Numbered from the stretch's first letter, positions 8,180 to 51,691 are shown. The stretch is 58,365 nt of DNA from Bacteroidota bacterium (GCA_036139835.1 JAYZYW010000042.1:1-58365); one strand, 5' to 3'. Notes: generated from the letters alone by a model not told the origin. A program made the numbers and translations.

Positions 8180-8193
8180 AAAATCTATCCCAT

Positions 8194-8565: not shown

Positions 8566-8666
8566 ATTATATATTTAAAAGATTAATATATACAATAATA
8601 TCAAAATTAACCTAATAATTAAATATAATATAGTCTTTTTTTTATTAACAATTCCATTTATGTTAC

Positions 8667-10608: not shown

Positions 10609-13600
10609 TTAATACTTTTTCTTAATTTGTTTTAAAAACTTCTCAGTAATATCATCAGAAGCAGACATATAACGATAAGCTGGGGCACCCTTACTTCTTT
10701 TAGGCTTTCTTTTTTCTGCATCTATCTCATTAATTGCTGTAGTGAAATCTGGATTAGTTGACCAAGCACGCATTACACCATTTTTATATTGAAAATAATA
10801 TTCATCATAGAGGTCTGTCAGCAAGTAAATAGTTAGCACATCAGTATTCTGTCCTTTTTCAATAATTAAATAACCTTCAACTGTTGAATTAACTTGCCTA
10901 TCCATAATACTACTTACCGCAATAGCCCCTCTTGCGATATACGCTTTATTTTCATTATCCCATTTCAATGTTGTTTTTGCAAATACAATGGAATGTTTCA
11001 TCTCATCTGGAAACTTAGAATATTCATCGGTCATTTCCAAATCAACAAGTAAAATCTCACCCCTTTCTTTCCCTACAACCCTAGCTAAATTTTTCGCAAA
11101 ACTCTCATCATATTCAAACAGTTCTTCACCAGGAGCCCCATACAAATCCTCTGCCATAACTTTCAAAGCATCTTCTGAAAAGAAAAAATCCAACATCAAG
11201 AAACCTTCTAATTCTGTTTTTTGAGAATGTATATTGTGCGTAACATTTCCAATAGATTGAAGTTTAACTTGTCCTAAATTAAGATTTAAATCCATAATTC
11301 CTTCTCCAGATGTAGCACAAGTTTTATCATATAAAGTATAATAATTTGCAAAAACATCAGGGCCACCAACAATATATGCAGATTTCTTATTATCATATTG
11401 CAAAGTATAAGAAGCTGAAAGTACACTTACATCAAGTGCCGTACGCTTCTTTTTACTTAAAAATGTTGAATAGAAATCTGTAGAATCAAAACTCATAACA
11501 AGTGCTGCTGACAAAAGATCATCTGCCTCATTATATATTTTTTCATCCAATGTAAACTTTATATTCTTAGGATCAACTTTTGATCTAAATTTTATCCATT
11601 CTTTATCCAATAAAGCACAATCATGATTTGCCATAAAGTATCCATCAAAAGTTAGATTTTTCTGATCAGCAATTAAATCAACACTTCCTTTAAAATCAAA
11701 CTTACTATCAATATGAAATACCTTATCTGTAGCAACATCCCCTCTAGCAATTGTTATTGTATCCTCATCTACTTTTATTTCTTTGAAGAAAATCTGTTGT
11801 TCATTATTCGTAGCATCTTTATAAGTGTAATCACCATTTCCTGTATAATTATGTGCTGATTTTATATTTACAGTAGCATTAGTAAATGTATGGTATTCCG
11901 TTAAATCATCTGCTAAAATATTAGCCCCATACAAAGTTTCAATTACAGCTTTTTTTGCAATAGTCACTATACCTGAATCTGGATAAATTATTGCATCAGC
12001 AACTGCTATATTTTCCACTCCATCTGCATGAATTATATAATCCTTTAAACTATAAAAAGCAGTTTTTGCAAAAAAGCTTAAGGAGTCTTGAGTAGGATGA
12101 ATAGACACAAATTCAGAGCCTGCGCCACTAGCAACTTCATCCCCTAATGTTAAAGATTCTTCATCCATGCGCCATCTCAACTTGTCAATATACGATATAT
12201 ATTGATTTGCGGGAAGCTCTACATAAGAACCCGAACCATTAGAATTAAAAATTCCTTCACGCATTACTAAATCGATATGAGTCTTTAAATTATTTGCCTT
12301 AAAAGCTAAATTCCCCCCATCTTCAAACACTCTTAAACTAGCAGTATCAGAACCAAACCAATTTGCATTATAAGTAAACAGATTAGCATTGACCTTCGCT
12401 TTATCAAGAGACATAATACCAGCACCTGTGAGTCCAGTTGGTCGCATTAATAGATTCCCATTAAAAGTAACTTGAGATTGATAAAAGTCAAATTCATCTT
12501 TTGTTTTATAAATATTTAATCTATCATTATACGGTTCAAAATGAGCATACGTCTCAGTATTCTTTACATCAGGGAACTCAATACCTATTGCAACCTCAGT
12601 AATTGCAAATACTTGCGTGTAAAGGTTAGTTGAATCAGGGAAAAAGAAAATCTCATCAGCACTTGCTTTTGATGTCAGATACTCAAGATCACCGCTCCCT
12701 TTTAACCCTTTATGGCTCAAATGAATATCATGATAATACTTCCCTTTACCACCATAAATTACAAACCCATCATCAGGAGTCTTTCGAGTAAATCCTAAAG
12801 AATAATCTTCTTGTAACCTCAAAGTATCGTTAAAAGTTGGAAAGATACCTGCAGATTCAAAAACACCCGAAAACGATAAGCCTTTTCCTGTATAATTATC
12901 TAAACTATCAATCTCAAAAGGATCTAAATGGAATGAAAATCTATCTCTGTTATACACACCATCATAAATTGATTCTTTATCATAATAGGCATACGAATCA
13001 TAATGGGAGCGGAAAATAGGAAATCCAGGAAAACTATCTTTTCTAATTCCTGATTTATTGGTTGGATCATCAATTCTAAGATCACCTGTTACTGCTTCTA
13101 TTACTGTTTTAATAGGTGTTAACATAGCATTGCCGTACATATCTTTTTTTATTGGCTGTACTGGCACAGAAAGTTGAACAGAATCAATATGATTTAAATC
13201 AACTTTAAAATCATCATAATGAAATAAGAACTCTCTACCAAACAGCTTTAATCTCCCCTTACCTGCAAAAACTTGACCATTAAAAATAAAATCTCTATTT
13301 TTTTTCACAACAACCAATCCATTTTTTGGATATAAATACACACCTCTTTTTTTACTTACTTCAACATTATGAATACCTATAATATTCAAATCCTTTGTTT
13401 CTAAATTTAATGCAGCATTTACCAAATGTTTATCTCCTGTTTTATAGTCTGCTGGTTTAACAATAGAATTAAATGAAATGACATCATAATCACCTAAATC
13501 AGAGGCAGCAGCGACATAATTATATAATTTAGGAAGCACAGTAATTCTTTCTAAACCAAAATCATAAAATATAAACCCATATCTAGACAATCTAATCAGT

Positions 13601-24170: not shown

Positions 24171-25103
24171 TTACTTTTTAGGCAAAAATACTTCTGCCAT
24201 CATACATCTTGCGCTTCCACCGCCACAAGCCTCTATTGTATCTATTGCGCTATGAATAATTGAGCCATATTTTTCAAGTGCATTTTTTTGTTCATCTGTT
24301 AAACCATTAAATGCAGAATTAGACATCACAAGATAAGGTTTATCCCCCATTACTTGCAACATATTTCCTGCAAATCTATTTTTTTGCGATTCACTAATTT
24401 CTATTATTTCTTTTCCTGTTTCAGTAAGCACCTCTACAACATGCATTCTTTCTGCTTCATCATCAATACTATCTAAGCAAATTACTGCAAATTTATCAGC
24501 TACACACATCATTACATTTGTATGATAAATAGTCATTCTCTCTCCATTAACATCTTGATTGGCCGTAAAAAAAACTGGACGATAATCAAACTCCTTACAA
24601 AATTGCATTACTACAATTTTATCTGTACGGATAGAAATAGCTGCATAACAAATTTTATATTCTCTATCAAGTACCATACTACCTGTCCCTTCAAGGTATT
24701 TATCATGATCTTCAAACTCAGTAAAATCTTTTATTTCTTCTATTTTAAAACCATACTCCTCAACTAATGTGTCAAGAATATCTTCTCTCCTTTCATCTCT
24801 TCTATTTTCAGCACACATAGGGTATAATCCTATCATTCCATCAGAATGAAAAGAGACCCAATTGTTTGGAAAAATTGAATCTGGAGTCTCAGGTTCTTTT
24901 GTATCCTCAATCACAATTACATTAACTCCAGCATTTTCTAATTTTTCAACAAGATTATTAAATTCTAATAGTGCTTTTTCTTGTATTTGCTCAGAAGATA
25001 AATTATCCAACACTATCTGATAATAATTATTCACGGCTGTTTGCTCATTATATCTAAAGCTAACTGGCTTTATCATCAGTATGTTCTTTGTTATTTGCTG
25101 CAT
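24171..25103 (-). CDS. Guanidino-group-modifying-enzyme superfamily hydrolase, CtlX-like (citrulline utilisation hydrolase / arginine-deiminase-related)
   Basis: The C-terminal GGGSARCMMAEVF catalytic-Cys motif and the N-terminus ILMIKPVSFRYNEQTA. I prefer the ATG at 25103 (residue 11 of the track ORF), which shares one nucleotide with the upstream stop (TAATG). Confidence 0.65.
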   Translation of the reverse strand: MQQITKNILMIKPVSFRYNEQTAVNNYYQIVLDNLSSEQIQEKALLEFNNLVEKLENAGVNVIVIEDTKEPETPDSIFPNNWVSFHSDGMIGLYPMCAENRRDERREDILDTLVEEYGFKIEEIKDFTEFEDHDKYLEGTGSMVLDREYKICYAAISIRTDKIVVMQFCKEFDYRPVFFTANQDVNGERMTIYHTNVMMCVADKFAVICLDSIDDEAERMHVVEVLTETGKEIIEISESQKNRFAGNMLQVMGDKPYLVMSNSAFNGLTDEQKNALEKYGSIIHSAIDTIEACGGGSARCMMAEVFLPKK

Positions 25104-26017
25104 TATTCTCTTATTAATGGCATTGTTGAGCATCTAAATAATCCAGACATTTTTGCTATTTCAGCATAAGGGACTTCTTCTACAATAAATCCTCTTTTTC
25201 TTAACTCCGCATTCAACCTTGTAAATTCTTTTTCCGATATTATCACTTTTTCCGATATTGAGAATACATTTGAATTCATATTATACATTTCCTCTCTACT
25301 TATTTCAATAATATTTTCTTTACCAAAATAATTTATCAAGGAAATAACATCTTTCTCATTCTTAAAACCACCTTTATATAGTATTGCCATACCCTTACCA
25401 ATTGGTTGAAAACAACAATCTAAATGCAAAGCATTTTCTCTGGAATTATCATCCGACTTATTTAATTCCAAACCCTTCACCTTTTTATTTGGAAAAGTAT
25501 CTGCTAAAAAATCAAGTCCGGCTATATTTGTTCTGGCTACTGTATATTTCTCAAAATCTTCCTTTTCAGAGTATCCAACAAAGATATATTCATTCCAAAG
25601 TATTACATCTCCTCCTTCTACCCTAGCATCTTCTGGTATTTTTATTTTATCTAACTCCTCTATTTGACTTAAAACGACACCAATAGCTTCTACTTCTTTT
25701 CTTCTATCTTCAATTATATTAGGTAAAACTAATTTATCTTTAATTGCAAAAGCTATATCTCTTGAAAATATCTGATTTAATCCTTTGATATTTTGAGGTC
25801 GATATACTTTTACATTGTATTTTTCAAAAACTACAACCAAAGCATCTATTGCTGCAATACAATCCTTTTCAAATGGAAAAATTCCTGCCTTTACATGTTC
25901 TTTTGATTTAGGATCATAACATTCTTCTTCAATTGGAGTTCCTCCAAAATCATCAGCAATTCCTACTAAAACAGATTTTAATTGAGCCGTTTCATTTGTT
26001 ATGTTTATCTTCATCAT
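25103..26017 (-). CDS. Amidinotransferase/DDAH-like guanidino-group-modifying enzyme
   Basis: C-terminal GLFRCSTMPL catalytic-Cys context, and HLDC in mid-protein. The track start at 26029 is TTG and lies inside the -7 box, so I prefer ATG 26017 (MMKINITNE...). Confidence 0.65.
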   Translation of the reverse strand: MMKINITNETAQLKSVLVGIADDFGGTPIEEECYDPKSKEHVKAGIFPFEKDCIAAIDALVVVFEKYNVKVYRPQNIKGLNQIFSRDIAFAIKDKLVLPNIIEDRRKEVEAIGVVLSQIEELDKIKIPEDARVEGGDVILWNEYIFVGYSEKEDFEKYTVARTNIAGLDFLADTFPNKKVKGLELNKSDDNSRENALHLDCCFQPIGKGMAILYKGGFKNEKDVISLINYFGKENIIEISREEMYNMNSNVFSISEKVIISEKEFTRLNAELRKRGFIVEEVPYAEIAKMSGLFRCSTMPLIRE

Positions 26018-26026
26018 AATTGTATG

Positions 26027-26034
26027 CAAATTTA
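26027..26034 (-). promoter_or_regulatory. -7 promoter box (TAAATTTG) for the DDAH-like/CtlX-like/argS unit
   Basis: Exact TAnnTTTG match ending 9 nt upstream of the ATG at 26017. Confidence 0.45.
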
Positions 26035-35480: not shown

Positions 35481-36617
35481 CTACTTCACCAATTTCATTA
35501 ATTCATCAATCCCATTTACAAATGATTCCCAACTAAATCTTTTTTTTTCTTCCTTAGTATTTAACACAAATCCTTCTTCTTTATTATTCTGATAAAAGTC
35601 TACTATTGCATCTGCAATATCATTAGGATTTTTAGAAGTAACATAGCCCACTTTATTATTAGGAACAATTTCAGCCAAACCTCCAACATTAGTCACTAAC
35701 ATGGGGCGCTCAAAATGATAAGCAATTTGAGTTACTCCACTTTGAGTAGCTGTTTTGTAAGTTTGTGTAATCATATCAGAGGCACAAAAATAATTTTTAA
35801 CCTTTTCAGCTGTAATAAAGTTACTGTGTAAGATAACCTGATTCTTAATTCCTAAAGTATCTATTAATACTGTATATTCATTCTTATTATCATAAAACTC
35901 TCCCGCTACGATTAGCTTTACTCCCAACGCTTTAATCCGCTCATCAGCCATTGCTTTAAGTATCAAATCTAAACCCTTGTACTTGCGTATAAAACCAAAA
36001 AATAACAAATATTTATCATCAGAACTTAACTCTAAATTTTTAATTGCATCTTTTTTTGAAATTTTCTCGCCAAAGACATCATAAATAGGATGTGGAATAA
36101 ATTTCTTAAAAATAGAAGTGGTAAAATGAGTCAAGTCATCAAGCACAGATTCAGAAAGGGTTAAAAACGCATCACAACTTTTTACAAAATACTTAGTAAG
36201 AATTTTATCTCCTAAGCGTTTTTCATGAGGAATAACATTATCAGTAATAGCTAAAATCTTTATCTTTTTATTAAGCAACCTAGCAATAGTACCTAAACAA
36301 GGAGACATAAAGGGCAACCAATATCTTATAATTACTAAATCTGGGGTTTCCTTATTTATTTTATTAGCAACTTTTATCCAATTAAAAGGGTTTAAAGAAT
36401 TGATCAATGTTTTAATTCTTAAGTTTTTAGGGGGAATTCCGTCCTCATATTGAGTAATCCCTGGAAATAAAAATGAAGGATATTGTAAGGTAAAAGAAAA
36501 TAAGGTCACATCATCTCCTCTATCATTATAAGCCTTTGCTAAGGCATTATTAAAATTGGAAATACCACCTCTAAAAGGGAAAGCAGGGCCAATAATAATA
36601 ACTTTTTGATTAGCCAA
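35481..36617 (-). CDS. Glycosyltransferase family 4
   Basis: 378 aa. C-terminal GT-B signature (SGVTQIAYHFERPMLVTNVGGLAEIV). The track start is TTG, 3 nt after the upstream stop. Confidence 0.82.
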   Translation of the reverse strand: MANQKVIIIGPAFPFRGGISNFNNALAKAYNDRGDDVTLFSFTLQYPSFLFPGITQYEDGIPPKNLRIKTLINSLNPFNWIKVANKINKETPDLVIIRYWLPFMSPCLGTIARLLNKKIKILAITDNVIPHEKRLGDKILTKYFVKSCDAFLTLSESVLDDLTHFTTSIFKKFIPHPIYDVFGEKISKKDAIKNLELSSDDKYLLFFGFIRKYKGLDLILKAMADERIKALGVKLIVAGEFYDNKNEYTVLIDTLGIKNQVILHSNFITAEKVKNYFCASDMITQTYKTATQSGVTQIAYHFERPMLVTNVGGLAEIVPNNKVGYVTSKNPNDIADAIVDFYQNNKEEGFVLNTKEEKKRFSWESFVNGIDELMKLVK

Positions 36618-36620
36618 AAT

Positions 36621-37568
36621 CTAAACCTCTTTTTCTATTTGATAGTTATTTCTATCATAGGTATTTCGTGATATCATTTCAGCAATAAAACCAGCCAGAA
36701 ATAACTGGACACCAATAATCATGGAAGTTAAAGCAATGTAAAATCCTGACATTTGAGCAATATTAGTGGCTGGAGAACTATTGAGCATAAAATATATTTT
36801 AGTTCCACCAATATAAGCAAATAAGCCAAAACCAAGCATAAACATTAAGCTACCAAAAACACCAAAGAAATGCATTGGTTTTTTCCCAAATCGACTTACA
36901 AATGTAATAGTAAGCAAATCCAAGAATCCATTTGTAAATCGCTCTAATCCAAATTTTGTAACACCATACTTTCTGGATTGATGAAGCACTACTTTTTCAG
37001 TAATATTAGAAAAACCAGCCCATTTAGCCAAAATAGGGATATAGCGATGCATTTCACCATGTACTTCAATTGATTTTATTACTGTATTTTTATAAGATTT
37101 AAGTCCACAATTAAAATCATGTAAATAAATGCCAGAAGCCCTGCGAGCAGCCCAATTAAACAATTTTGTAGGAATAGTTTTTGTAATTGGATCATGTCTC
37201 TTCTTTTTCCATCCTGAAACCAAATCATAACCATCAATAGTAATTTTATGATATAACTCAGGGATTTCATCAGGACTATCTTGCAAATCAGCATCCATAG
37301 TAATAACTACATCACCTTTTACTTTTGAAAAAGCAACATTTAAAGCTGCAGATTTCCCATAATTTTTTCTAAGCTTAATTCCTTTAATATTTGTGTTTTG
37401 AGAAGATGTTTTTTCTATAATTTCCCATGAATTGTCTTTACTGCCATCATCAATTAAAAGCACTTCATAAGTGTAATTATTTTCTTGCATTACTTTATCA
37501 ATCCAAGCACATAATTCTGACAACGATTCTTCTTCATTCAATAAAGGCACTACTATACTAATATTCAT
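36621..37568 (-). CDS. Glycosyltransferase family 2, polyprenyl-phosphate glycosyltransferase-like (GtrB/ArnC type) with C-terminal TM helices
   Basis: 315 aa. ISIVVPLLNEE, LIDDGSKD and MDADLQD motifs, followed by 2 TM helices. Confidence 0.88.
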   Translation of the reverse strand: MNISIVVPLLNEEESLSELCAWIDKVMQENNYTYEVLLIDDGSKDNSWEIIEKTSSQNTNIKGIKLRKNYGKSAALNVAFSKVKGDVVITMDADLQDSPDEIPELYHKITIDGYDLVSGWKKKRHDPITKTIPTKLFNWAARRASGIYLHDFNCGLKSYKNTVIKSIEVHGEMHRYIPILAKWAGFSNITEKVVLHQSRKYGVTKFGLERFTNGFLDLLTITFVSRFGKKPMHFFGVFGSLMFMLGFGLFAYIGGTKIYFMLNSSPATNIAQMSGFYIALTSMIIGVQLFLAGFIAEMISRNTYDRNNYQIEKEV

Positions 37569-40505: not shown

Positions 40506-40994
40506 CTAGTGCTTCTTTAAATGAGGGCTTTTAAACATAAAAGGCAATAAATCCTGAACTTTATTTGCAATAAGCACCTGATCAGTAGGTGAATGTAAAA
40601 TTACTTTTATTGACTGTTCTTGTTTATCTTCATACTCTGCCATAACTTGCCTACACGCCCCACAAGGAGAAATAAAATCAGTTACTTCAAAACTTTTAGA
40701 AAATACAGAAATAGCTATAGTTTTTATTTTAACATCTGGAAATTTTGCTCCCACATAAAACATAGCTACTCGTTCAGCACAAAGCCCAGATGGGTAGGCA
40801 ACATTCTCTTGATTACTACCATTTATAATCTCCCCATTTTCCAGCAAAATACTTGCCCCAACCAAAAAGCCTGAATAAGGAGCATAAGCAGTGATAAAAG
40901 CTTCTTTTGCATTAGCAATAAGCTCTTGATCTTTATTGTCTAATTCTGATAAATACGCTGAGGAAAAATGAAGCTCTATCTTTTTTTCTTGCAT
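40506..40994 (-). CDS. cdd: Cytidine deaminase
   Basis: 162 aa. Zinc ligand motifs CAERVA and PCGACRQ. The ATG shares one nucleotide with the upstream stop (TAATG). Confidence 0.9.
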   Translation of the reverse strand: MQEKKIELHFSSAYLSELDNKDQELIANAKEAFITAYAPYSGFLVGASILLENGEIINGSNQENVAYPSGLCAERVAMFYVGAKFPDVKIKTIAISVFSKSFEVTDFISPCGACRQVMAEYEDKQEQSIKVILHSPTDQVLIANKVQDLLPFMFKSPHLKKH

Positions 40995-41650
40995 TATAAA
41001 TCATATAAAATTTTGCCCTCAAATATAAAAAGAGTTTCTGAATTACTCACATAAAAATCTTGCTGAATACGATAACCTAAATCAAAATCTAAGTTTTTAG
41101 TAATTCGGTGCGATACTGTAATAGTTGATCGCAATTTATTAATTCCATCCTCTAAGTTGAAGAAATATTCAGTTGCAACATTAGGTCTAAGTTTTGTTTT
41201 ACGAATATTATAAGATACTGAAAACTTCTGACGCAAAGTCATTTTGTAACCATACATATCTCCTTGAGTTTGCCATCTATTTCTTATAGCATACGATAAT
41301 CTTTTAACAAGCTTATTTTTGTAATTGATATCAGCATAAAACCTATTATTATTAGAAATTTCAAGTTCTTTGTCCCAATTAGTAGCATATCGATAACCAC
41401 TTGCAAAAGAGACCCTTTTATTCAAATCTCTTTTCAATTTTAAATCAAAAAATTGTTTGGAATACAAAGAAGAATTCTCTCTTAATCTTAATCCTGATTT
41501 TAATCTGAGGTTCGTCTTTTTAATAATCTTTTTATTAAGAGAAAATGAATACCAAGTTTGGAAATCATTTTCTTGGGCTAAAACTGAAAAAGAACTCAGT
41601 AATAGTAATAAAATACTATTCTGAATTATTCTCATCTGAATTATCCTCAT
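40994..41650 (-). CDS. DUF2490-like signal-peptide protein, beta-rich (probable outer-membrane protein)
   Basis: 218 aa. Signal peptide ending SVLAQ and alternating-hydrophobic beta-strand character throughout. There are two in-frame ATGs (41650 and 41635) created by a 15-bp duplication. The family call is from memory of the DUF2490 pattern. Confidence 0.55.
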   Translation of the reverse strand: MRIIQMRIIQNSILLLLLSSFSVLAQENDFQTWYSFSLNKKIIKKTNLRLKSGLRLRENSSLYSKQFFDLKLKRDLNKRVSFASGYRYATNWDKELEISNNNRFYADINYKNKLVKRLSYAIRNRWQTQGDMYGYKMTLRQKFSVSYNIRKTKLRPNVATEYFFNLEDGINKLRSTITVSHRITKNLDFDLGYRIQQDFYVSNSETLFIFEGKILYDL

Positions 41651-42275
41651 AATAGAAAATCCTGATATTCGCTATATCTTTTAAAAAATCAATTCTTCTT
41701 ATTTCTATTCTACTAATATTCAAACCTGTTCTTGCTTTTAAATCTGCAATTAATTCCTCTCTTTTTTCAGGGACAACAAGTTCTATCTTTTCATAAGTTA
41801 TATTCTTACGAATTTCATGTTTCAACAACCATATGCGTTCCATTCCGTAAGTAACAAACACAATAAGAAGATTAGCAAAAATAACCTCCGCATGACTAAT
41901 TTTTTTATTAGCTAAGGCATTTACCACAGATATTCCAATCACTAAAAAAAGATAAGTCATTTCCTTAATAGCAATAGGATCAGTACGATATCTTATAATA
42001 CCAAAAATAGCAAAAAGGCCAAGAGCAAATCCTAGTTGCAGTTTCACACTATCTAACAAAACACAAAGTAAGAATACCGTTAAACTAATCAAGAAATAAG
42101 TAAATAAATAATCCTTATTTTTAGTTACAGGATAATAAATATATCTAACAATTATTGTAATAATTGTCAAATTAAACACTGTCTTTACTAATAATGTCCA
42201 AAAATCTTTTGAATCAAATATTGGAGTCCCTAAAAACTCAGGTCCTTTGCTTAATAATACTGAAAGTAATTCCAT
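41616..42275 (-). CDS. DUF4956-like polytopic inner-membrane protein with a C-terminal soluble domain
   Basis: 219 aa. Four to five TM helices, then a charged domain of about 70 aa. The ATG immediately follows the stop of the VTC-domain gene (TAAATG). Confidence 0.6.
   Translation of the reverse strand: MELLSVLLSKGPEFLGTPIFDSKDFWTLLVKTVFNLTIITIIVRYIYYPVTKNKDYLFTYFLISLTVFLLCVLLDSVKLQLGFALGLFAIFGIIRYRTDPIAIKEMTYLFLVIGISVVNALANKKISHAEVIFANLLIVFVTYGMERIWLLKHEIRKNITYEKIELVVPEKREELIADLKARTGLNISRIEIRRIDFLKDIANIRIFYYEDNSDENNSE
41621..41650. repeat. 15-bp direct tandem duplication (ctgaattattctcat / ctgaattatcctcat, one mismatch)
   Basis: Read directly from the sequence. It lies in the 35-nt overlap of two genes. 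It encodes MRIIQ-MRIIQ in one frame and EDNSD-ENNSE in the other. Confidence 0.9.
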
Positions 42276-43025
42276 TTATGCTAGTTTTAATTTTGTTAAA
42301 AATAATTTTTTTTGTTTAAATCGATTTTGTTTTAAATTAGGATTCAACTCTAATGTGCTCATGCAATATTTACTAATCCTAATTGGTAAAATATGTAATT
42401 CTTTTGCAATTCTTATAAAATCAGATGATCTACTCATTCGTTCTTGTTTTACCTCAGCAATAGCAAGCTGCTTTAAATCCCCAGATTTTTCTTTACTCTC
42501 AAAAGTAAGGTTTATATCCATAGTCAACCTTTCTTTTTGTGTTTTATGTACAAAAGTAATTCTGCTAAAGTTAATCCATTGTTTTGACTTCACATCCATT
42601 TGCTTTCCAATAATCTTATTGATGTAAGTTTGTTGTTTAGGAGTTAATTCTTTTGCAATTGAATCAACTTTCATTCTCTTTTTAATGGTTCTACCCTTAT
42701 TGTTCTTGAGTTTAATTTCTAAAAAAGTAAGCTTACTCCCGACATACTCTCTAAAACGAACTTTGTTTCTATTTACCCTGCGATTATGATGATCAAGATA
42801 AAACTTTCTATCATCAGTATCATAGTAAAGAGATTTATAATCATGAATAAATTTCCCATCTATTTCAAGCACTCTATAAAAAGGTTGCATTTGCTCCAAC
42901 AACTGTGGAAGTTTTGCTGACTTAAAGGCAAACTTTGTATCCGTTCTACTCATCAATTTCACATCATCCATTTCATCTAATGAAATAGGTGAAAAATCAG
43001 CTATTATTTGTGAGAAGGCACTCAT
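42276..43025 (-). CDS. VTC-domain (triphosphate tunnel / polyphosphate-polymerase-domain) protein, cytoplasmic
   Basis: 249 aa with no signal peptide. It has alternating charged beta-strand motifs: RTDTKFAF, YYDTDD, NKVRFREY, FLEIKLK, AIAEVKQE. These are typical of CYTH/TTM tunnel enzymes and of bacterial proteins annotated as polyphosphate polymerase domain-containing. Confidence 0.65.
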   Translation of the reverse strand: MSAFSQIIADFSPISLDEMDDVKLMSRTDTKFAFKSAKLPQLLEQMQPFYRVLEIDGKFIHDYKSLYYDTDDRKFYLDHHNRRVNRNKVRFREYVGSKLTFLEIKLKNNKGRTIKKRMKVDSIAKELTPKQQTYINKIIGKQMDVKSKQWINFSRITFVHKTQKERLTMDINLTFESKEKSGDLKQLAIAEVKQERMSRSSDFIRIAKELHILPIRISKYCMSTLELNPNLKQNRFKQKKLFLTKLKLA

Positions 43026-43028
43026 GTA

Positions 43029-43448
43029 TTAATTATTCTCAATTACAAAGTCAGCAACTGTATTTACTGAATTATCATCCTTTATTGTAATATACTTATA
43101 AATTGGAAGTTCATAAGTATATTCTGATTCCGTACCTGTAACTACAGTAGTATCTTTATGAAGATAGATAGTATAATCACCTTTTCTTAAAAACTCAAAA
43201 TGATATCTCCCATTATAATCTGTTTCAAATTTATCATCATATACTCCAGTCTCATCATCAGAATAGATAATAAATACATCTTTTTCCGCTTTTGGATACT
43301 CGTGTGTATCTAGTTGGAGTGTTACCGGATTTAATGTTCTTTCAAAATAAATAACTTTTCCTTCAATTACCGATGTCCCTCCTTCTCCGGCTCCTTTTTC
43401 ACAAGCAGTAAGCCCTATAATTGCACAAATAATGAAAATTTTTCTCAT
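43029..43448 (-). CDS. Small lipoprotein with a carboxypeptidase-regulatory-like beta-sandwich pattern
   Basis: 139 aa. Lipobox IGLTAC, plus IEGKV...DYNGRYHFEFLRKGDYTI. Confidence 0.55.
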   Translation of the reverse strand: MRKIFIICAIIGLTACEKGAGEGGTSVIEGKVIYFERTLNPVTLQLDTHEYPKAEKDVFIIYSDDETGVYDDKFETDYNGRYHFEFLRKGDYTIYLHKDTTVVTGTESEYTYELPIYKYITIKDDNSVNTVADFVIENN

Positions 43449-43451
43449 GTA

Positions 43452-45662
43452 TTATTGTTTTATTATTTTAACCACAGAATCTGCTGATTTCACAAAATAA
43501 ATACCATCTTCCCAATTGCTAATATCAATTGATTTTACTTCATTATCAGAATAAACTTTCTGACCCATCATATTAAACACATTAATAGTCCGAGTGTCTC
43601 CTAATAGATATATCCTAGTATTAGAAGGATTCGGATAGACCCTAAACTTACTCTCATAACTGATGTCACTATTTTCAGTTGCCTGTTGATTGTTATCCTC
43701 ATAAGTGTGATCTTGATGCTGCATAGTTCCACTACCGTTTGGAACTCTTGCATAACCTTTATCGGCAATCATATTTACATAATGGACTGCATCAATAACA
43801 TTTCCAGAAGGGTCGCTTAAATAAACTTCCTCCTGATCAGCAGATAATCGATATGTAGTATGTAATCCTGCCTGACTTACACCAGCTGTATCACACCAAA
43901 TAATTAAATAATCATTAGGTTGAATACTTACACTTGGGAATGACCATTTTGTTAAATCATTCTCATTATCCGACAAATAAAAACCACTTAAGTTTATTGA
44001 ATTTACACCTCCATTATAAAGCTCCACCCAATCATCAAACTCTCCATCCTGATCCGCCACTGATGAGGAATTAGCCGCCATGATTTCATTAATTACCAAT
44101 CCTCCAACAACTGCTAATTGATGGAATTCCTTCTCAGCTCTTTCAGGAGAGAAAATCCCCGCATCATTATTTTCTGCATAAAAGTAATACTGAACATCTC
44201 TAGCATCTACATTAATAGTCGCTCCAAAAACCCCATCACCAGCAGTTCCATCACCATGTTGCCCATCATCAAACATCTGTAATTTTTCAAACTCATCAGC
44301 AAACTTATATCTATAGCCCAAGTAAGCATAATTTGAATTTGAGATTTGTGCTGTAATATTTACTGATGTATTAGGTAATACATTTGTAGGGCTTGATGAA
44401 ATATTTGAAATTACTGGAGGTGTAACTGTAAATTCCGTAAGGGATTGAAGATATTGTATTCTAGATGACATTAATTCAGAAATACCAATAACAGGATTAA
44501 CTCCAACAGATGTAGTTATATTGCTCGTAAACTCAGCATAAGTGTAGAATGGGTTTGGATCTGCACTTACATCTGTATCTATAAGTTGTTGCAGTTGATT
44601 AGCTCTTGTAATGTAATTATTATTCACAAATTGCTCATTTAAAATAGTACGCATGTGTGCTACATACATACGCTTATATCTATCAGAAGAAAACAGTTGA
44701 TTTGTCAATTTATTATTAGGATCATTACTATTATGAAAAATATCTATTTCCTGTAAATCATTAATAGTAACAGGTGTAGGCAAACCATTAGTAAAAGTTC
44801 CAAATGCCATATTCATATCCCATAATATAGTAGAGAATCTACCATTATTATTCTGAAATAGATAAAAATTATGAGGAATAGAATTAATTGGGCCATCTAA
44901 ACAAACAGTTAAATTTTCAAAAGCCATCATCCATAAGGCCCTATCTATATCCATAACACTCTCAATATCATTAAAGTGACTATTTAATGTGTCTAAAAAA
45001 TTCCCCAATTTTTCCCAATCATTGGAAGATTGCATTTCATATGCTCTTTGATAACAATTTGTATCTGAATAATATTCTAAAATACCTAACTGCCCCACGC
45101 ACCCTGGAACTGAAATCCCTGTATTATCAACTTTAAAAAAAGGACCATTACGCTCATAAAAATGTTCATTCGTAAAATCATCATCAATTGACTGAACACA
45201 AGTATACAAACCAATTAATATACCATCTACAAATACATTAGCATATGTAGCTTTTGAAGCAGGCATATACTGCCTAGCAATCTCATAACTTAATACTTCA
45301 CGAATAAAAGAAGGATCACGAAACCCATTAGAAAGTTTCAGTACATTATAACCATCAATAGATTGTCCATTATTTATATAATCCAATTTTATATTCATTG
45401 GATTTTTTACATTATTTACATTGTAAGAACTATTTCCTTTATACTTAACACCTACATTTTCATCTAACAAACCATCAATTAATATTGAATCAGCTATTAA
45501 TCTTTCTCCATTATTATTAGCATAATAAATATCAAGCGAATCATCCCAATTAGGTTCATTAAAAAAGATTTCTATTTGACGAACGCCAATATCAAACACA
45601 TCTTGAGAAAAAGAAAAAAAAGAAATAATTAATAAAAAGAAAATTAAAAATAATTTAGGCAT
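43452..45662 (-). CDS. CotH kinase family protein with a lamin-tail domain and a T9SS C-terminal sorting domain
   Basis: 736 aa. Signal peptide. CotH core (VGVKYKGNSS...NPMNIKLDY...LKLSNGFRDPSFIREVLSYEIARQYMPASKATYANVFV...WDMNMAFG). LTD (LVINEIMAANSS...DDWVELYN...FYLSD). T9SS tail (RVYPNPSNTRIYLL...GIYFVKS). Confidence 0.85.
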   Translation of the reverse strand: MPKLFLIFFLLIISFFSFSQDVFDIGVRQIEIFFNEPNWDDSLDIYYANNNGERLIADSILIDGLLDENVGVKYKGNSSYNVNNVKNPMNIKLDYINNGQSIDGYNVLKLSNGFRDPSFIREVLSYEIARQYMPASKATYANVFVDGILIGLYTCVQSIDDDFTNEHFYERNGPFFKVDNTGISVPGCVGQLGILEYYSDTNCYQRAYEMQSSNDWEKLGNFLDTLNSHFNDIESVMDIDRALWMMAFENLTVCLDGPINSIPHNFYLFQNNNGRFSTILWDMNMAFGTFTNGLPTPVTINDLQEIDIFHNSNDPNNKLTNQLFSSDRYKRMYVAHMRTILNEQFVNNNYITRANQLQQLIDTDVSADPNPFYTYAEFTSNITTSVGVNPVIGISELMSSRIQYLQSLTEFTVTPPVISNISSSPTNVLPNTSVNITAQISNSNYAYLGYRYKFADEFEKLQMFDDGQHGDGTAGDGVFGATINVDARDVQYYFYAENNDAGIFSPERAEKEFHQLAVVGGLVINEIMAANSSSVADQDGEFDDWVELYNGGVNSINLSGFYLSDNENDLTKWSFPSVSIQPNDYLIIWCDTAGVSQAGLHTTYRLSADQEEVYLSDPSGNVIDAVHYVNMIADKGYARVPNGSGTMQHQDHTYEDNNQQATENSDISYESKFRVYPNPSNTRIYLLGDTRTINVFNMMGQKVYSDNEVKSIDISNWEDGIYFVKSADSVVKIIKQ

Positions 45663-45700
45663 AATTCTATTTTAAAAAGATGGCGTAAAGTTAAGAAATA

Positions 45701-46933
45701 TTAGTTAACGACTATCTTTTTAATAATAGCGCCGTCAGAGAATTGAATATTAACATAATATAGTCCTTTTTTGCAAGATGAAAAATCAATACTATATTGT
45801 TCTTTCTTCTGATTTTCCTCATATATCAAGACTCCTAAGTTATTATATATCTTAACCTGTTGAATGTCTTTTCCATCATTACTTAAATAAACCATATTAC
45901 TAGTTGGATTTGGAAATATATTAACTACTAACATTGCAGTTTCATTAACAGCACTTGGCATAGCTGATATTTTAGAAACTCCTGTGCTAGTTGCTACCCA
46001 AACATTATCTTCAGAGTCAATTGCCAACCCTCTTACATTTGGTCCTGCTAAACCATCTGAAACGTGAAAATCTTCCCATTGACTACCATTCCAATAAGCA
46101 ATACCTCCTTCTGCCAAATAACCAACATAAATAGCGGTCCATATTCTTCCGTATGAATCCATTGCAATATCCACCACAGGATTTATAGAATCATGAGGTG
46201 GCGGAAGGGAATACATCTCTATATAATCGATACAAGATGTATTTGAAGCGTTAAGAACAGACATTCCAAGATCTGTTCCAATCCACTTGTTATCTTGGTT
46301 ATCTATAAGTAAAGCTGTCACATTTTGTGAAAGTAATCCATTTGAGGTATTATAATTTGTGAAAGTTGTTCCGTCAAAATGGGTAACACCACCTAAAGGA
46401 GAGGCAAACCACTTGTCTCCATTAGAATCAAAAGCAGTAATATTAACACCACTCCAATGCAAATCAGGAGAAGAGTAAGACATCCAAGAATTACCGTCAA
46501 AATAAGAAACCCCTTGATTGGTACCAATCCAAACATCACCATTAGGATCTTCATCAATACTTTTTACTTGATTACTAATAAGACCATTTGCTGTTGTATA
46601 TGGCGCCCAAACACTAGCAGGGATACCATATAATAATTGATTTGCGCCATAATCTGTTCCAATCCATATTTCTCCACTAGAAATTGCTTTAATAGATTTA
46701 ATATTATCAGAAACAATCTCAGGAAAATTTGCTTGATTCCACATGTACCAGTCCCCAGCATCATACATCTGAACTCCAACACTAGTCCCAAACCAAACAT
46801 TATCATCTTGATCTACATCTATACATTCAACAAAATCACTAATTAACCCATCTGCTGTAGTGTAGTTTGTAATAGTTTGTGCTTCTAGTTGTATTGCAAA
46901 AAAGCACATTATTATTAATAAACATTTTTTCAT
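45701..46933 (-). CDS. Secreted beta-propeller protein (two-component-regulator-propeller type repeats) with a T9SS sorting domain
   Basis: 410 aa. Signal peptide. Repeated GL.sn.V..i..D..g..WigT..G units. The tail is NIFPNPTSNMVYLS...GLYYVNIQF. Confidence 0.75.
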   Translation of the reverse strand: MKKCLLIIMCFFAIQLEAQTITNYTTADGLISDFVECIDVDQDDNVWFGTSVGVQMYDAGDWYMWNQANFPEIVSDNIKSIKAISSGEIWIGTDYGANQLLYGIPASVWAPYTTANGLISNQVKSIDEDPNGDVWIGTNQGVSYFDGNSWMSYSSPDLHWSGVNITAFDSNGDKWFASPLGGVTHFDGTTFTNYNTSNGLLSQNVTALLIDNQDNKWIGTDLGMSVLNASNTSCIDYIEMYSLPPPHDSINPVVDIAMDSYGRIWTAIYVGYLAEGGIAYWNGSQWEDFHVSDGLAGPNVRGLAIDSEDNVWVATSTGVSKISAMPSAVNETAMLVVNIFPNPTSNMVYLSNDGKDIQQVKIYNNLGVLIYEENQKKEQYSIDFSSCKKGLYYVNIQFSDGAIIKKIVVN

Positions 46934-46935
46934 AA

Positions 46936-49188
46936 TTATTTTATTTTTATCACTTTTGCTATCTGATTTTTATCTTTCAAAGATATAAAATAAACTCCTG
47001 AATCCCAAGTTGATGTTTGTATTCGATTTGTACTTTTTGAAATATAAATGGGTTTTCCTAACACATCTCTAACTTCAATCTTGTCTTCTTCTTTCAAATA
47101 TAAAATATCAGTAAAAGGATTTGGATAGATTATTACTTCCCCACTTATATCTTCAATTGAATTAGGGAAGTCATTATTTGCCTTAAAAGTTGGTATTAAC
47201 ATTGTAAACGATCCAAATCCATTAGGACTTCTGCCATAAGCTATATCATCTAATTGAGAAAGATAAGTGATAGAATCAATAACTGAACTATCAGAGTTAG
47301 ATAAAATAAGTGATTCTCCAAAATTAGACAATTGAAAATTTGCATGCTCTTCACCCTGATTTCCATCCTCATCAGCCCAAATAATAAAATAAGTGTTAGG
47401 TTGGATAATATGGTTAGGTAAATTCCATTTATGAAGGTAAGCAAGCGTATCTGTTATAAATAACCCATTTGTAGAAATTGGAGAAGAAGTTGTATTATAC
47501 AGCTCAATCCAATCTTCATATTTTCCGCTATTATCAGTTATTGTACTTATATTATTGGACATAACTTCATTTATAACTAAATCTCCTGGCTGAATAGTAG
47601 TTTGAATAGTATAGTACTGATAAGCAGCTCTTACTGGAGAGAAAACCCCACAAGAATCATTATCAGCATACAAATAGTAATCTAATGAGTTACTACAATT
47701 ACTTATTTTACATCCATAAATACCATCACCTGATATGCCGTCATTATGGTTGCCATCATCATACATTTCTACTGATTTAAATCGTTCATTTTTTCCAAAT
47801 CGATAAACTAGCTTTGTAAAAATTGCATCTATAACTTCTGCTGTTATCCAAATATCATCTCCTAATGTGAAATTTTGAGGAAAGTAAGCGATATTGGAAA
47901 TTGTAGGCTCACCTGAATACCCTAAATATGAGCTTAAATAAGATGAGCGACTATCCATTAATTGAGTAACACCTGGACAAATTGATGCCACTAATGAAAC
48001 TTGACTTGTAAGGTTTGTTGTAAAGTCAGAATAAGTATAAAATTTATTTGTATCATTTTGCACATCCTGATCAATTAGATTCTGCAAGGACTGACCTCTT
48101 ACAAAATAATCTTGATTTACAAAATTCTCTTCCATTATTGTACGAATATGTGCTAAATACATTTTACGATTTCTTTCATTTTCGAACAATTTTTTCAAAA
48201 GTGGCCTTGGAGCTACAGAAAAAAAACTATGATGAGTTAGTGGGTCCATATTCTGAGCTTGAATAATATCAAAACCATTAAAATATTGTTGTGAAGCATC
48301 TGTTAATCTAAAACCACCAAACGACATATTTAAATCCCAAATTATTGGATTCCACTGATTTGCTTGATCTTTATACAAATAATAATTTTGTCCATATCCT
48401 ATATAGGAATCAAAATTTATCATAGAATAATTTAATGCATGCATCCATAAAGTTCTATCAACATTTAACAAATGATGAATACTATCTGCAAAATTATTTA
48501 ATGTATCTATCAGGTTATACAACTCTTCCCAACCATAAGCAGATTTAAGAGAATAAAATGGATAATAGTCACTACTATCAGTACCATGAGTGTTGCTTAA
48601 ATTAGCATTCTCTCCACCAATTTGAATATTTAAATTTTCAGGATTACATTTAAAAAATGAATTATACTTACTGTCAAAATGATCAATCAGAAAACTTTTA
48701 TTTACTGCTTCAACATTAGTGTATAAACCCCATAAAGTATCATTAATATAAATATTTGCATAATTTGCCTGTGATGCTGGCATGTATTTACGGCATACTT
48801 CATAAGTAAGGATTTCCCGGATAAAGGAAGGGTCCTGTATAACATTGGAAAGTTTAAGTTTGTCTACTCCTTGATGGTCTTGTCCTTCAATTATATAATC
48901 TAACTTAATATTAAAGGGATTTTTAAGTCGATTTACACTAACAGAACTGAATCCTTTATATCTAACACCAACACTATCATATTGATTGCCATCTATTTCA
49001 ATATCAGCTAAAATTCTATCATTATCACCTTGTACATATAGACTATCTAAAAGATAATCCCAATTTGTATTATAAAAACTAATCCGAATCTCTCTTACAC
49101 TATCAGTATCATAAAAACTATTTTGTGAAAATGAATTATAACAAAACAATAATAAAAGCATACAAATAAGAAGTCGTTTTAATAACAT
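46936..49188 (-). CDS. CotH kinase family protein with a lamin-tail domain and a T9SS C-terminal sorting domain (paralogue of 43452-45662)
   Basis: 750 aa. The architecture is the same. VGVRYKGFSS...NPFNIKLDY...LKLSNVIQDPSFIREILTYEVCRKYMPASQANYANIYI...WDLNMSFG. LTD LVINEVMSNN...EDWIELYN...LFITD. Tail IIYPNPFTDILYL...GVYFISL. Confidence 0.85.
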   Translation of the reverse strand: MLLKRLLICMLLLLFCYNSFSQNSFYDTDSVREIRISFYNTNWDYLLDSLYVQGDNDRILADIEIDGNQYDSVGVRYKGFSSVSVNRLKNPFNIKLDYIIEGQDHQGVDKLKLSNVIQDPSFIREILTYEVCRKYMPASQANYANIYINDTLWGLYTNVEAVNKSFLIDHFDSKYNSFFKCNPENLNIQIGGENANLSNTHGTDSSDYYPFYSLKSAYGWEELYNLIDTLNNFADSIHHLLNVDRTLWMHALNYSMINFDSYIGYGQNYYLYKDQANQWNPIIWDLNMSFGGFRLTDASQQYFNGFDIIQAQNMDPLTHHSFFSVAPRPLLKKLFENERNRKMYLAHIRTIMEENFVNQDYFVRGQSLQNLIDQDVQNDTNKFYTYSDFTTNLTSQVSLVASICPGVTQLMDSRSSYLSSYLGYSGEPTISNIAYFPQNFTLGDDIWITAEVIDAIFTKLVYRFGKNERFKSVEMYDDGNHNDGISGDGIYGCKISNCSNSLDYYLYADNDSCGVFSPVRAAYQYYTIQTTIQPGDLVINEVMSNNISTITDNSGKYEDWIELYNTTSSPISTNGLFITDTLAYLHKWNLPNHIIQPNTYFIIWADEDGNQGEEHANFQLSNFGESLILSNSDSSVIDSITYLSQLDDIAYGRSPNGFGSFTMLIPTFKANNDFPNSIEDISGEVIIYPNPFTDILYLKEEDKIEVRDVLGKPIYISKSTNRIQTSTWDSGVYFISLKDKNQIAKVIKIK

Positions 49189-49193
49189 TATAT

Positions 49194-50771
49194 TTACTTA
49201 ATATACGATATACGTCTTGAATCTATTTTCCCAGAGTTATGAATTATATTAAGCATGTATATTCCTTCTGAATATTCACTGAAATCTACTTTTAAAATGA
49301 TTTCACCTACTTCATTAATCAACTTATTATATACAGGTTGACCTAAAATGTTAGAAATACTAATTGCATTAATTTTACTTGCAGATTGATTCATTACTAT
49401 ATTAATTGATCCATTTGTTGGATTAGGAGACACAGAGATTATATCATTAATATCATTAATACTAGTTGCAGTAAAACAAGATGTTGTTGCAGTATTCATA
49501 TAAGTTTCAAGTGCTATAATACCAGGATAATCACATTCATATCGGAAGCCTTTTTGTGAATCTGCATTATAAGGACCCCAAATTATTTGTTCAGTTACTG
49601 CATCTACCTCATACATAACTCCAGCACCTCCTTGCCCTCCAGAAGCATTAACATATATATTTCCATTTGACATTCTATCAGAAGCAGATTGACCACTAGA
49701 AGAATAAGCACACTCATATCTTGTAGTATATGAGCTAGGAGCAAATGCTTGTCCAGGAACTCTCAGATAAGTATTTGTTACTGCATCCCAAGGAGTATCA
49801 ATACCATCAATTGCTGACACATTATTACTAACACCACTATTATTAAATATTTGCAAATACCCTCCGTTTGGTCTTCCATCATCAGTAATCCAACGAGCAT
49901 CATGTACAGCATTGTCAATAACTTGTGCTCCTGACATACCATAATTTGAAGGATTCCCCCATCTATATAATATATCTCCACCCATACCAGAATTTCCTCC
50001 AGAATGAGATGCCGCTTGAGCAGTTGTAGTACTATGATCAATTATATAAATTTCAGATGCAAACCTTGAAGAAAATACAATTTGATCTAAATCCTCATTA
50101 TAATCAACTCCATTAACATGAAACCAATCACCTCCACCACCACCAGGGCCTCCGCCTCCCTGAATCATATTTATATCTATTAGTTCAGGGTTGTCTGAAA
50201 TGTTTGAAATATAATTAGGTCCATTAGGATCTATATTTTGACACATGTGATCCCAGATATGCCATTCCCATACTATATTTGCTCCACCATTGCCGTCTGG
50301 TTCTAATTCAACAAAATGAGTTGGCCATTTTTCAGAACTAGCATTATCAAATCCTGCAGCATTTAACTCTGTAGTAGTCTTTTTCTCATAAGCTGTTAAT
50401 AAAACATTATCACCAATTAATGTCAAATCATGGTGACTGACATGATCATTATTTGCATATATATATTCCCACACAATAGTGCCATCTGGAGCAATTTCTT
50501 GCACCATACCACCTCCAGCAGCTATATTTCCAGAACTAAATACACTAGTATTTCCTTTAGTTCCTCTTACTAAATTTCCATTCTCTTTTAAAGCTACAGT
50601 ATAGTTACATTCTGTGCTCATATTCCATGTATGAGCAATATTCTGATTCTCATCAATTAAATAGGTTGTATTTGATCCCTGAGAATTGTATAGCGCAAAC
50701 CCATTAAAAGATTGTCCATTAACAAATATTGATGAAGCAAATAATGTTAATACGAATAGTGTTGTTTTCAT
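49194..50771 (-). CDS. Arylsulfotransferase-like (ASST-type beta-propeller) secreted protein with a T9SS sorting domain
   Basis: The track ORF starts at 50852, but that overlaps mazG. ATG 50771 gives a clean signal peptide (MKTTLFVLTLFASSIFVNGQ). WEWHIWDH and DWFHVNGVDY...SSRFASEIYIIDH resemble ASST family motifs. The tail is VSPNPTNGSINIV...GIYMLNI. Confidence 0.55.
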   Translation of the reverse strand: MKTTLFVLTLFASSIFVNGQSFNGFALYNSQGSNTTYLIDENQNIAHTWNMSTECNYTVALKENGNLVRGTKGNTSVFSSGNIAAGGGMVQEIAPDGTIVWEYIYANNDHVSHHDLTLIGDNVLLTAYEKKTTTELNAAGFDNASSEKWPTHFVELEPDGNGGANIVWEWHIWDHMCQNIDPNGPNYISNISDNPELIDINMIQGGGGPGGGGGDWFHVNGVDYNEDLDQIVFSSRFASEIYIIDHSTTTAQAASHSGGNSGMGGDILYRWGNPSNYGMSGAQVIDNAVHDARWITDDGRPNGGYLQIFNNSGVSNNVSAIDGIDTPWDAVTNTYLRVPGQAFAPSSYTTRYECAYSSSGQSASDRMSNGNIYVNASGGQGGAGVMYEVDAVTEQIIWGPYNADSQKGFRYECDYPGIIALETYMNTATTSCFTATSINDINDIISVSPNPTNGSINIVMNQSASKINAISISNILGQPVYNKLINEVGEIILKVDFSEYSEGIYMLNIIHNSGKIDSRRISYIK

Positions 50772-51585: not shown

Positions 51586-51604
51586 TTATCTATTAATTAA
51601 AGCA

Positions 51605-51612
51605 CAAACATA
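51605..51612 (-). promoter_or_regulatory. -7 promoter box (TATGTTTG) for mazG and the downstream operon
   Basis: Exact TAnnTTTG match on the minus strand, 19 nt upstream of the mazG ATG. Confidence 0.4.
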
Positions 51613-51620
51613 ATACAATA

Positions 51621-51660
51621 GATTTTTTATTGTTGATTTTTTATTGTTGATTTTTTATTA
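51621..51660. repeat. 14-bp tandem repeat gattttttattgtt, about 2.8 copies
   Basis: Read directly: 51621-51634 and 51635-51648 are identical, and 51649-51660 is a partial third copy. It lies in the divergent intergenic region between mazG and the 51692 gene. Confidence 0.9.
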
Positions 51661-51666
51661 CGTTTG
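51659..51666 (+). promoter_or_regulatory. -7 promoter box (TACGTTTG) for the 51692 gene
   Basis: Exact TAnnTTTG match 25 nt upstream of the ATG. It overlaps the end of the tandem repeat. Confidence 0.4.
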
Positions 51667-51691
51667 TAGTCTATTTTAAAATTTAGCTCTT

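Follow-up and report, generated by a model that had tools for sequence, protein, structure and literature searches.

A conserved VTC–DUF4956 gene pair with predicted envelope partners and a frequent CotH neighbour in Bacteroidota: a possible membrane-coupled polyphosphate polymerase

Proteins of three families, the CotH kinases, the VTC-domain enzymes and the DUF4956 membrane proteins, have been found encoded together in several bacteria. In Firmicutes and Actinobacteria, a cotH gene, a polyphosphate polymerase gene and a DUF4956 gene come after pelDEADAFG (Whitfield 2020, PMC7112168), and VTC genes, membrane proteins and CotH occur together in the NELoc-2 locus of C. perfringens (PMC2879425). 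Deletion of either the DUF4956 or the CotH gene in S. intermedius (SIR_1592-1594) lowers aggregation in sputum medium by more than 50%, and deletion of DUF4956 also leads to more Pel; the authors of that study reported that the triad was not found outside pel loci (PMC12345266). BT3498-99 of B. thetaiotaomicron are adjacent DUF4956 and DUF2490 genes (PMC10434189), and an evolutionary review of polyphosphate surveyed VTC-domain proteins across eukaryotes only (PMC10657179). Here we describe a locus that carries the triad in a 58,365-nucleotide (nt) stretch of DNA from a Bacteroidota bacterium (GCA_036139835.1, JAYZYW010000042.1:1-58365; the whole stretch is referred to as the window), in which eight minus-strand open reading frames (ORFs), all intact, span positions 40994-50771. 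The first-pass annotation of this DNA knew of no characterised function for the combination of genes; the triad is indeed biochemically uncharacterised, but it is already in the literature, where it was reported beside Gram-positive pel operons (PMC7112168, PMC12345266). Contrary to the S. intermedius report, it is seen outside pel loci in the window and in 28 other Bacteroidota loci. In the literature searched, no description was found of the diderm form, which has DUF2490, a lipoprotein and a CotH borne by the type IX secretion system (T9SS) and lies away from pel.

The block consists of two modules side by side, a core (43452-45662 plus 40994-43448) and an accessory trio, a division that is drawn because the trio recurs without VTC and close relatives keep the core alone. 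Read in the direction of transcription, the core encodes a CotH protein (CotH_B), a small lipoprotein, a VTC-like triphosphate-tunnel enzyme, a polytopic DUF4956 protein and a DUF2490 beta-barrel; the trio upstream of it encodes an arylsulfotransferase (ASST)-like protein, a beta-propeller protein and a second CotH (CotH_A). In a complete 2.1-Mb relative (L001), whose VTC protein is 79% identical, the order is mazG-CotH/LTD/CTD-lipoprotein-VTC-DUF4956-DUF2490-cdd, where LTD is the lamin-tail domain and CTD the T9SS C-terminal domain, and the slot thus holds five genes, not eight. The assignments of CotH, VTC, DUF4956, DUF2490, LTD and T9SS CTD made in the first-pass annotation are all supported by searches with hidden Markov models (HMMs), and its predicted locations in the cytoplasm, inner membrane, lipid anchor, outer membrane and cell surface also hold. 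Seven of the eight genes have Pfam matches, all above the gathering score, and NCBIfam further identifies a choice-of-anchor-X domain and the type A sorting domain of the T9SS. The Pfam scan covered all ORFs between 8679 and 58339, that is, 38 of the 47 window ORFs of at least 150 residues together with the 139-residue lipoprotein; the nine ORFs left out lie outside this range or are nested.

Linkage of the core genes was followed in a VTC-anchored set of 80 species-level genome loci (VTC identity 42-80%), 43 of them with full flanks, which were annotated by iterated HMMs built from the window proteins. DUF4956 adjoins VTC in 77 of the 80 loci and in 42 of the 43 with full flanks, and to judge from this conservation it is an obligate partner of the VTC-like enzyme. 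Among the full-flank loci, DUF2490 comes after DUF4956 in 37, the lipoprotein precedes VTC in 30, and CotH lies within 10 kb of VTC in 28. A reciprocal set of 80 metagenome loci was anchored on CotH-LTD-CTD: the VTC module accompanies every close CotH homologue (at least 60% identity) whose downstream sequence is long enough to tell (11/11), and VTC is nearby in 5 of 25 distant CotH-LTD loci (37-45% identity, flanks of at least 4 kb). By gene order, CotH appears to be a frequent but optional accessory of the VTC module. The view in the first-pass annotation that the eight genes form one dedicated system therefore stands in part: VTC, DUF4956, DUF2490, the lipoprotein and one CotH are linked across genomes, with co-occurrence tightest for VTC and DUF4956 and looser for CotH in both directions, but the trio is separate and the eight genes are not one conserved unit.

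The closest relatives of the locus are in metagenome-assembled genomes (MAGs) of marine Flavobacteriales and Cryomorphaceae. Three MAG loci labelled Heimdallarchaeota, Gammaproteobacteria and Comamonadaceae (L046, L056 and L077, respectively) carry VTC-DUF4956 genes 42-48% identical to those of the window. L056 and L077 share recG/cdd synteny with a Flavobacteriales locus (L057), and the contig of L046 is just 6 kb; all three seem to reflect contamination during binning and not a genuine presence in other phyla.

The VTC-like enzyme (42276-43025, minus strand; 249 residues) has no signal peptide and no hydrophobic N-terminus or other hydrophobic segment, and it matches Pfam VTC (PF09359) at 3.4e-21 (76 bits, cut-off 23). 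VTC is the only Pfam domain in the chain, from which an SPX domain and Vtc-type membrane helices are absent. A single-sequence search of the PDB returned nothing relevant and a profile was needed; a 40-sequence family profile matches the yeast Vtc2/Vtc4 structures 3G3O and 3G3Q at 1e-5 and 1.5e-4. Counted along the printed profile alignment, eight of nine triphosphate/Mn residues of Vtc4 are kept: K31, R90, R92, K105, R155, E191, S218 and K219 correspond to Vtc4 K200, R264, R266, K281, R361, E426, S457 and K458, and all eight are invariant across 40 bacterial homologues (37-62% identity). The C-terminal third of the HMMER alignment, which holds E426, S457 and K458, scores -1.9 bits alone and is weak by score though visually consistent. 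In the cryo-electron microscopy study of Vtc4, these residues and Y359 bind triphosphate and Mn2+, and Vtc4, which is active, is set apart from the inactive Vtc2/3 by K458 alone (bioRxiv 10.1101/2023.01.27.525886). The beta-1 motif starts with Arg, as it does in Vtc4 (R196). The family is large, with 3675 clusters at 50% identity, and its member in the window is a candidate polyphosphate polymerase and the likely anchor of the conserved core.

The DUF4956 protein (41616-42275, minus strand; Pfam 6.5e-53) is a predicted polytopic inner-membrane protein with 3-5 transmembrane helices. Its AlphaFold2 (AF2) model (mean predicted local confidence, pLDDT, of 73) has a helical bundle at residues 23-149 and a small ACT/IlvN-like beta-alpha-beta-beta domain at residues 154-209. 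The most conserved stretch is the invariant motif GFALGLFAIFGIIRYRT..IKEMTY, which runs from helix 3 through a short basic loop into helix 4; the basic loop would face the cytoplasm if the C-terminal domain is inside the cell. In Foldseek the model gave no significant match and no link to the VTC membrane domain; its C-terminus gave weak, non-significant matches to ACT/IlvN domains (E about 0.8), a likeness to these regulatory domains that has also been stated elsewhere (PMC12345266). The family profile found nothing in the PDB at E ≤10. An MgtC/SapB-like nature has been proposed for DUF4956 (PMC12345266), but kinship with MgtC is not supported, as hhalign against E. coli YhiD gave a probability of 0.1% and none of 27 members matches MgtC in Pfam at E ≤10. 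Some close relatives (L011, L013, L014 and L016, with DUF4956 ORFs of 312-316 residues; also P0371, P0373 and P0388) have a C-terminal extension of about 100 residues.

The DUF2490 protein (40994-41635, alternative start 41650, minus strand) has a Pfam match of 4.3e-23 (82 bits), a signal peptide that ends in AQ and is followed by E, and a predicted beta-barrel fold, all in line with membership of a family listed as putative porins (TC 1.B.81; PMC4827864). With its second ATG (41635) as the start, the overlap with DUF4956 is 20 nt, and a 20-nt overlap in L001 agrees with this choice. The AF2 model contains at least nine strands, the last 35 residues being poorly modelled, and four arginines are invariant or near-invariant in the family. 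Foldseek returned outer-membrane barrels only, including the 12-strand KdgM/NanC/VhGalP class of acidic-sugar porins, and no specific porin class could be assigned from this fold search. The small lipoprotein (43029-43448, minus strand; 139 residues), which is encoded directly upstream of VTC, has an invariant lipobox cysteine (Cys16), a transthyretin/CarboxypepD_reg-like sandwich motif, a GEGG motif and the pattern DG.F.F..LRKG.Y; in Pfam it has only weak matches to DUF2606 and SdrD_B, and no family was assigned. Three loci from other Bacteroidota lineages (L053:9516-9992, L060:9419-9979 and L061:9383-9964) encode an extra small secreted protein of 158-193 residues between the lipoprotein and VTC, which has weak MORN/RHS-repeat matches and is absent from the window.

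CotH_B (43452-45662, minus strand) combines a signal peptide, a CotH domain (Pfam 2.2e-40), a choice-of-anchor-X domain, an LTD (1.1e-18) and a T9SS type A CTD (Por_Secre_tail, 1.6e-10). It is 73% identical to the sole CotH of L001 and is the CotH of the conserved core. CotH_A (46936-49188, minus strand) is a second CotH-LTD-CTD paralogue (CotH 4.2e-37, LTD 1e-14, Por_Secre_tail 1.6e-9) that is 38-39% identical to CotH_B; the CotH domains of the two score 129-140 bits in Pfam. As for VTC, the single-sequence PDB search returned nothing relevant and a profile was needed, which matches B. cereus CotH (5JD9) at 1.9e-27. D256, N265 and D282 are kept in both paralogues, and D256 and D282 align with D228 and D251 of B. 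subtilis CotH by our own counting on the B. cereus alignment, via the 23-residue spacing; D228 and D251, the latter the metal-binding Asp, are catalytic in B. subtilis (PMC7821199). At residue 271, CotH_B has Asn in place of the Asp found in 17 of 18 aligned CotH-LTD proteins (consensus YLYKD); both catalytic aspartates are intact. All four T9SS cargo proteins of the block have an N-terminal signal peptide and a C-terminal Por_Secre_tail/TIGR04183 domain, and on these signals both CotH proteins are predicted to lie outside the cell.

The VTC-DUF4956 pair recurs in other phyla. By tblastn, DUF4956 is present in nine plasmid records, six of which were inspected and have a VTC gene or remnant adjacent in 6/6. 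A Deinococcus taeanensis plasmid carries CotH-VTC-DUF4956, and in Deinococcus QL22 the pair stands beside a HAD-type acid phosphatase gene and phnDCEE. The gene order is DUF4956-VTC-PiT-phytase-like in Nitratireductor and DUF4956-VTC-phytase-like in Aminobacter and Shinella. On a Pseudoalteromonas plasmid (NZ_CP142031.1, L083), positions 6210-8588 encode an LTD-only protein, a 105-residue VTC remnant, DUF4956 and a phosphate-selective porin of the Porin_O_P family (2.4e-47). This plasmid, which also carries a transposase and an integrase at a distance of 4 kb, is the only proteobacterial case seen with an outer-membrane partner.

Domain identities, the conservation of catalytic residues and the linkage statistics lead us to propose, tentatively and at somewhat less than even odds, that the core encodes a polyphosphate polymerase coupled to the membrane, which has outer-membrane partners and, frequently, CotH as an accessory. 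In this model, the VTC-like tunnel enzyme would sit in the cytoplasm, at the inner face of the membrane, and build polyphosphate from the gamma-phosphate of ATP, and by analogy with yeast Vtc4, which feeds the VTC membrane channel, the chain may be passed to DUF4956; polymerisation with membrane coupling is the part that we hold to be slightly favoured over its negation. The lipoprotein and the DUF2490 barrel might then serve as the outer-membrane leg that takes the polymer to the periplasm or the surface, although export of polyphosphate across the outer membrane is doubtful. T9SS-secreted CotH-LTD, as an optional accessory, might act on the exported polymer, might act together with it, or might have as its target a polymer-binding glycan or protein at the surface; a role on or with the polymer is unlikely. 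The strongest form of the proposal, a complete trans-envelope machine in which polyphosphate is threaded through DUF4956 and DUF2490/lipoprotein to the surface and CotH uses the polymer instead of ATP as its donor or attaches it to surface glycans or proteins, we consider improbable. The phosphoryl-polymer idea of the first-pass annotation is strengthened as far as the polymer goes, because the Vtc4 catalytic residues are conserved and phosphate-related neighbours occur in other phyla; the dependence of surface CotH on the VTC product is weakened, because linkage is optional both ways, with CotH at 28/43 VTC loci and VTC at 5/25 distant CotH loci.

Several observations weigh against the proposed polymerase and exporter. 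Deletion of the VTC gene in S. intermedius gave no significant aggregation defect (PMC12345266). Y359 of Vtc4 is replaced by Phe (F153), and Y359F lowers polyphosphate in yeast (bioRxiv 10.1101/2023.01.27.525886); an invariant D29 stands in place of Vtc4 T198, which makes the beta-1 motif intermediate between that of hydrolases (ExExK) and that of Vtc4. No similarity of DUF4956 to either the Vtc membrane domain or MgtC was detected, and it is therefore the position of this protein that speaks for a channel role. A buried salt-bridge network of Arg, Glu and Tyr has been reported inside many DUF2490 barrels (bioRxiv 10.64898/2026.07.29.741452); such a network would suit a small, plugged barrel more than an open one and calls for caution on solute conduction. 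The genes for phosphate uptake beside the pair in other phyla are as compatible with import as with export. VTC-DUF4956 stands alone in 6 of the 43 full-flank loci, and export across the outer membrane is therefore not obligatory; CotH is missing in 15 of the 43, including two in the same mazG-cdd slot (L024 and L025: mazG-lipoprotein-VTC-DUF4956-DUF2490-cdd), and 20 of the 25 distant CotH-LTD loci are without VTC.

These last three counts, together with the kept core order of L024 and L025, also favour an alternative in which VTC-DUF4956 is a self-contained inner-membrane device for polyphosphate or phosphate homeostasis, its product remaining in the cytoplasm or periplasm, and the T9SS cargo (CotH, ASST-like and propeller proteins) is unrelated to it and merely encoded nearby in some lineages. 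The recurrence of the ASST-CotH-Prop trio without VTC and the tight packing of all genes in this genome point the same way. CotH within 10 kb in 28/43 loci, however, greatly exceeds a rough chance estimate of less than 1/43 for a rare family, and even the 5/25 at distant CotH loci is about 20-fold above a rough chance estimate; the triad recurs in Deinococcota, Firmicutes and Actinobacteria, and DUF2490 and the lipoprotein are envelope proteins closely tied to the pair. We regard such a device as unlikely, though it is the foremost of the alternatives.

Direction may also be reversed, with a barrel (DUF2490 or OprO/P) and DUF4956 importing pyro-, tri- or polyphosphate from the environment for hydrolysis by the tunnel enzyme in the cytoplasm, and with secreted CotH-LTD, ASST-like and propeller proteins that bind or process phosphorylated substrates at the surface. 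Tripolyphosphatases are common among bacterial tunnel enzymes, D29 returns an acidic residue to the beta-1 motif, Y359 is Phe, and the neighbours in other phyla (PiT, phytase-like, HAD acid phosphatase, phnDCEE, Porin_O_P) are of the phosphate-acquisition kind. Yet every basic tunnel residue matches Vtc4, the K458 equivalent included, the family scores as VTC and not as another CYTH family, no phosphate-uptake gene is present among the scanned window ORFs, and the occurrence of the triad within Gram-positive biofilm-matrix (pel) operons, where it affects aggregation, is hard to tie to uptake; we judge inward scavenging to be rather unlikely. Least probable, and in our estimate quite improbable, is a signalling module in which DUF4956 is a membrane sensor whose ACT-like domain regulates the tunnel enzyme; the latter would be a nucleotide cyclase or a triphosphatase and would control properties of the surface or biofilm. 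The CYTH superfamily does include adenylate cyclases, the DUF4956 C-terminus is weakly ACT/IlvN-like, and the aggregation phenotypes of S. intermedius, with more Pel on loss of DUF4956, are regulatory-looking. The residue pattern is nonetheless Vtc4-like and not CyaB-like, the ACT matches in Foldseek are non-significant, and a dedicated outer-membrane barrel or phosphate porin beside the pair is left unexplained.

The accessory trio lies between mazG and the core. The ASST-like beta-propeller protein with a T9SS CTD (49194-50771, minus strand; Arylsulfotrans 1.8e-11, Por_Secre_tail 6e-10) gave no PDB sequence match to a solved arylsulfate sulfotransferase in a single-sequence search, and its gene has 15 occurrences in the VTC-anchored loci, each with CotH. 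The second beta-propeller protein with a T9SS CTD (45701-46933, minus strand; Reg_prop 5.9e-20, Por_Secre_tail 4e-13) has a partial PorZ-like match in NCBIfam. The trio recurs without VTC within 10 kb at L139 (two copies), L146 and L166, and also at L133, L137 and L155, and CotH_A is absent from relatives that keep the core (L001, L002, L010, L018, L021 and L026). On this distribution, the ASST-like, CotH_A and propeller genes are read as a separate secreted module whose insertion, in this clade, placed it between mazG and the core.

The first-pass annotation described the block as packed, with junctions of -35 to +38 nt, flanked by mazG and cdd/recG and free of flanking repeats, and all of this is borne out: Pfam confirms the flanking genes, there is a 1-nt overlap between cdd and DUF2490, a gap of 19 nt separates the block from mazG upstream, and only short chance repeats were found around it. 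Tight packing does not speak for an operon, because closely spaced genes are the norm throughout this genome: co-directional genes have a median gap of 3 nt within the block and beyond it, and no gap in the minus-strand run 29260-51585 exceeds 49 nt. A mobile island was rejected on account of the absence of flanking repeats, the lack of a GC shift at the block (GC is 29-35% throughout the window) and the relatives that share the mazG-cdd slot. The sole sizeable intergenic gap upstream of the gene run is a spacer at 51586-51691 (minus strand), in which a motif scan found TATGTTTG, a Bacteroidota -7-type motif (TAnnTTTG), at 51605-51612, 27 nt before the mazG start; sigma-70 and terminator scans did no better than on shuffled sequence, and TAnnTTTG before mazG alone stands out. 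The spacer is a candidate promoter from which read-through into the block is possible. Just upstream of TATGTTTG, in the same divergent spacer between mazG and an Omp28-CTD gene, is a short tandem repeat (51621-51659) of about 2.5 copies of AATAAAAAATCAAC (minus strand), which may be a regulatory site.

Elsewhere among the scanned ORFs, the sole glycosyltransferases are one GT2 and one GT4 (35481-37568). A 1485-residue ORF (10609-15066, minus strand) has no Pfam match at E ≤1e-4 and has housekeeping neighbours (plsY, prmA and tpiA), and two DDAH/amidinotransferase-like genes stand in tandem at 24171-26029 (minus strand), adjoining argS and unrelated to the present finding.

Bacterial polyphosphate has been attributed almost wholly to PPK1 and PPK2. 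If the VTC-like proteins are active, with a membrane protein as constant companion and outer-membrane parts as well in diderms, they would constitute a second polyphosphate-making system, and the module would be a concrete candidate for how polyphosphate gets outside the cytoplasm. The recurrent tie to secreted CotH bears on the phosphoryl donor of bacterial extracellular kinases; a machine in which the polymer is the donor would, if real, amount to an extracellular kinase system that works independently of ATP, and would also be the first bacterial exporter dedicated to polyphosphate. Cultured carriers include S. intermedius, B. thetaiotaomicron (BT3498-99 region) and Brumimicrobium.

Among known systems, the Gram-positive pel accessory cassette (CotH/polyphosphate polymerase/DUF4956, /DUF4832) shares with this locus the adjacency of the three families and a CotH that is predicted to be secreted; in the window, CotH_B-(lipoprotein)-VTC-DUF4956 on one strand (41616-45662) shows the same adjacency. 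Unlike that cassette, the locus has no pel genes and no DUF4832, neither Pel families nor DUF4832 being found among the Pfam-scanned window ORFs; its CotH carries LTD and T9SS CTD domains, not FN3, and the locus further encodes a lipoprotein and a DUF2490 barrel. The window CotHs belong to the same fold family as the Bacillus spore-coat kinase CotH and keep the aspartates aligned with D228 and D251, but they are T9SS-secreted proteins of a non-sporulating diderm and are fused to a lamin-tail domain. The phosphate- and pyrophosphate-selective porins OprO/OprP offer a parallel for the barrel, since Porin_O_P takes the slot of DUF2490 after DUF4956 in the Pseudoalteromonas plasmid, a single proteobacterial case with a truncated VTC gene; DUF2490 is far smaller (about 195 mature residues) and has no sequence kinship with them. 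With the MgtC family, DUF4956 has in common the overall architecture alone, a helical bundle and a small alpha/beta domain.

The canonical polyphosphate kinases PPK1 and PPK2 make the same product as is proposed here, but their folds are unrelated to VTC and they are not coupled to a membrane channel. The eukaryotic VTC complex differs in that its enzyme and membrane parts are not on separate polypeptides, in its SPX domain, which the window enzyme lacks, in the residue at Y359, which is Phe here, and in a membrane domain to which DUF4956 has no detectable similarity; the window module adds a predicted outer-membrane barrel, a lipoprotein and a secreted CotH. What the two have in common is the Pfam domain of the window enzyme and Vtc4, the eight shared triphosphate/Mn-binding residues, and a tight tie to a polytopic membrane protein, through which translocation is coupled to synthesis in yeast.

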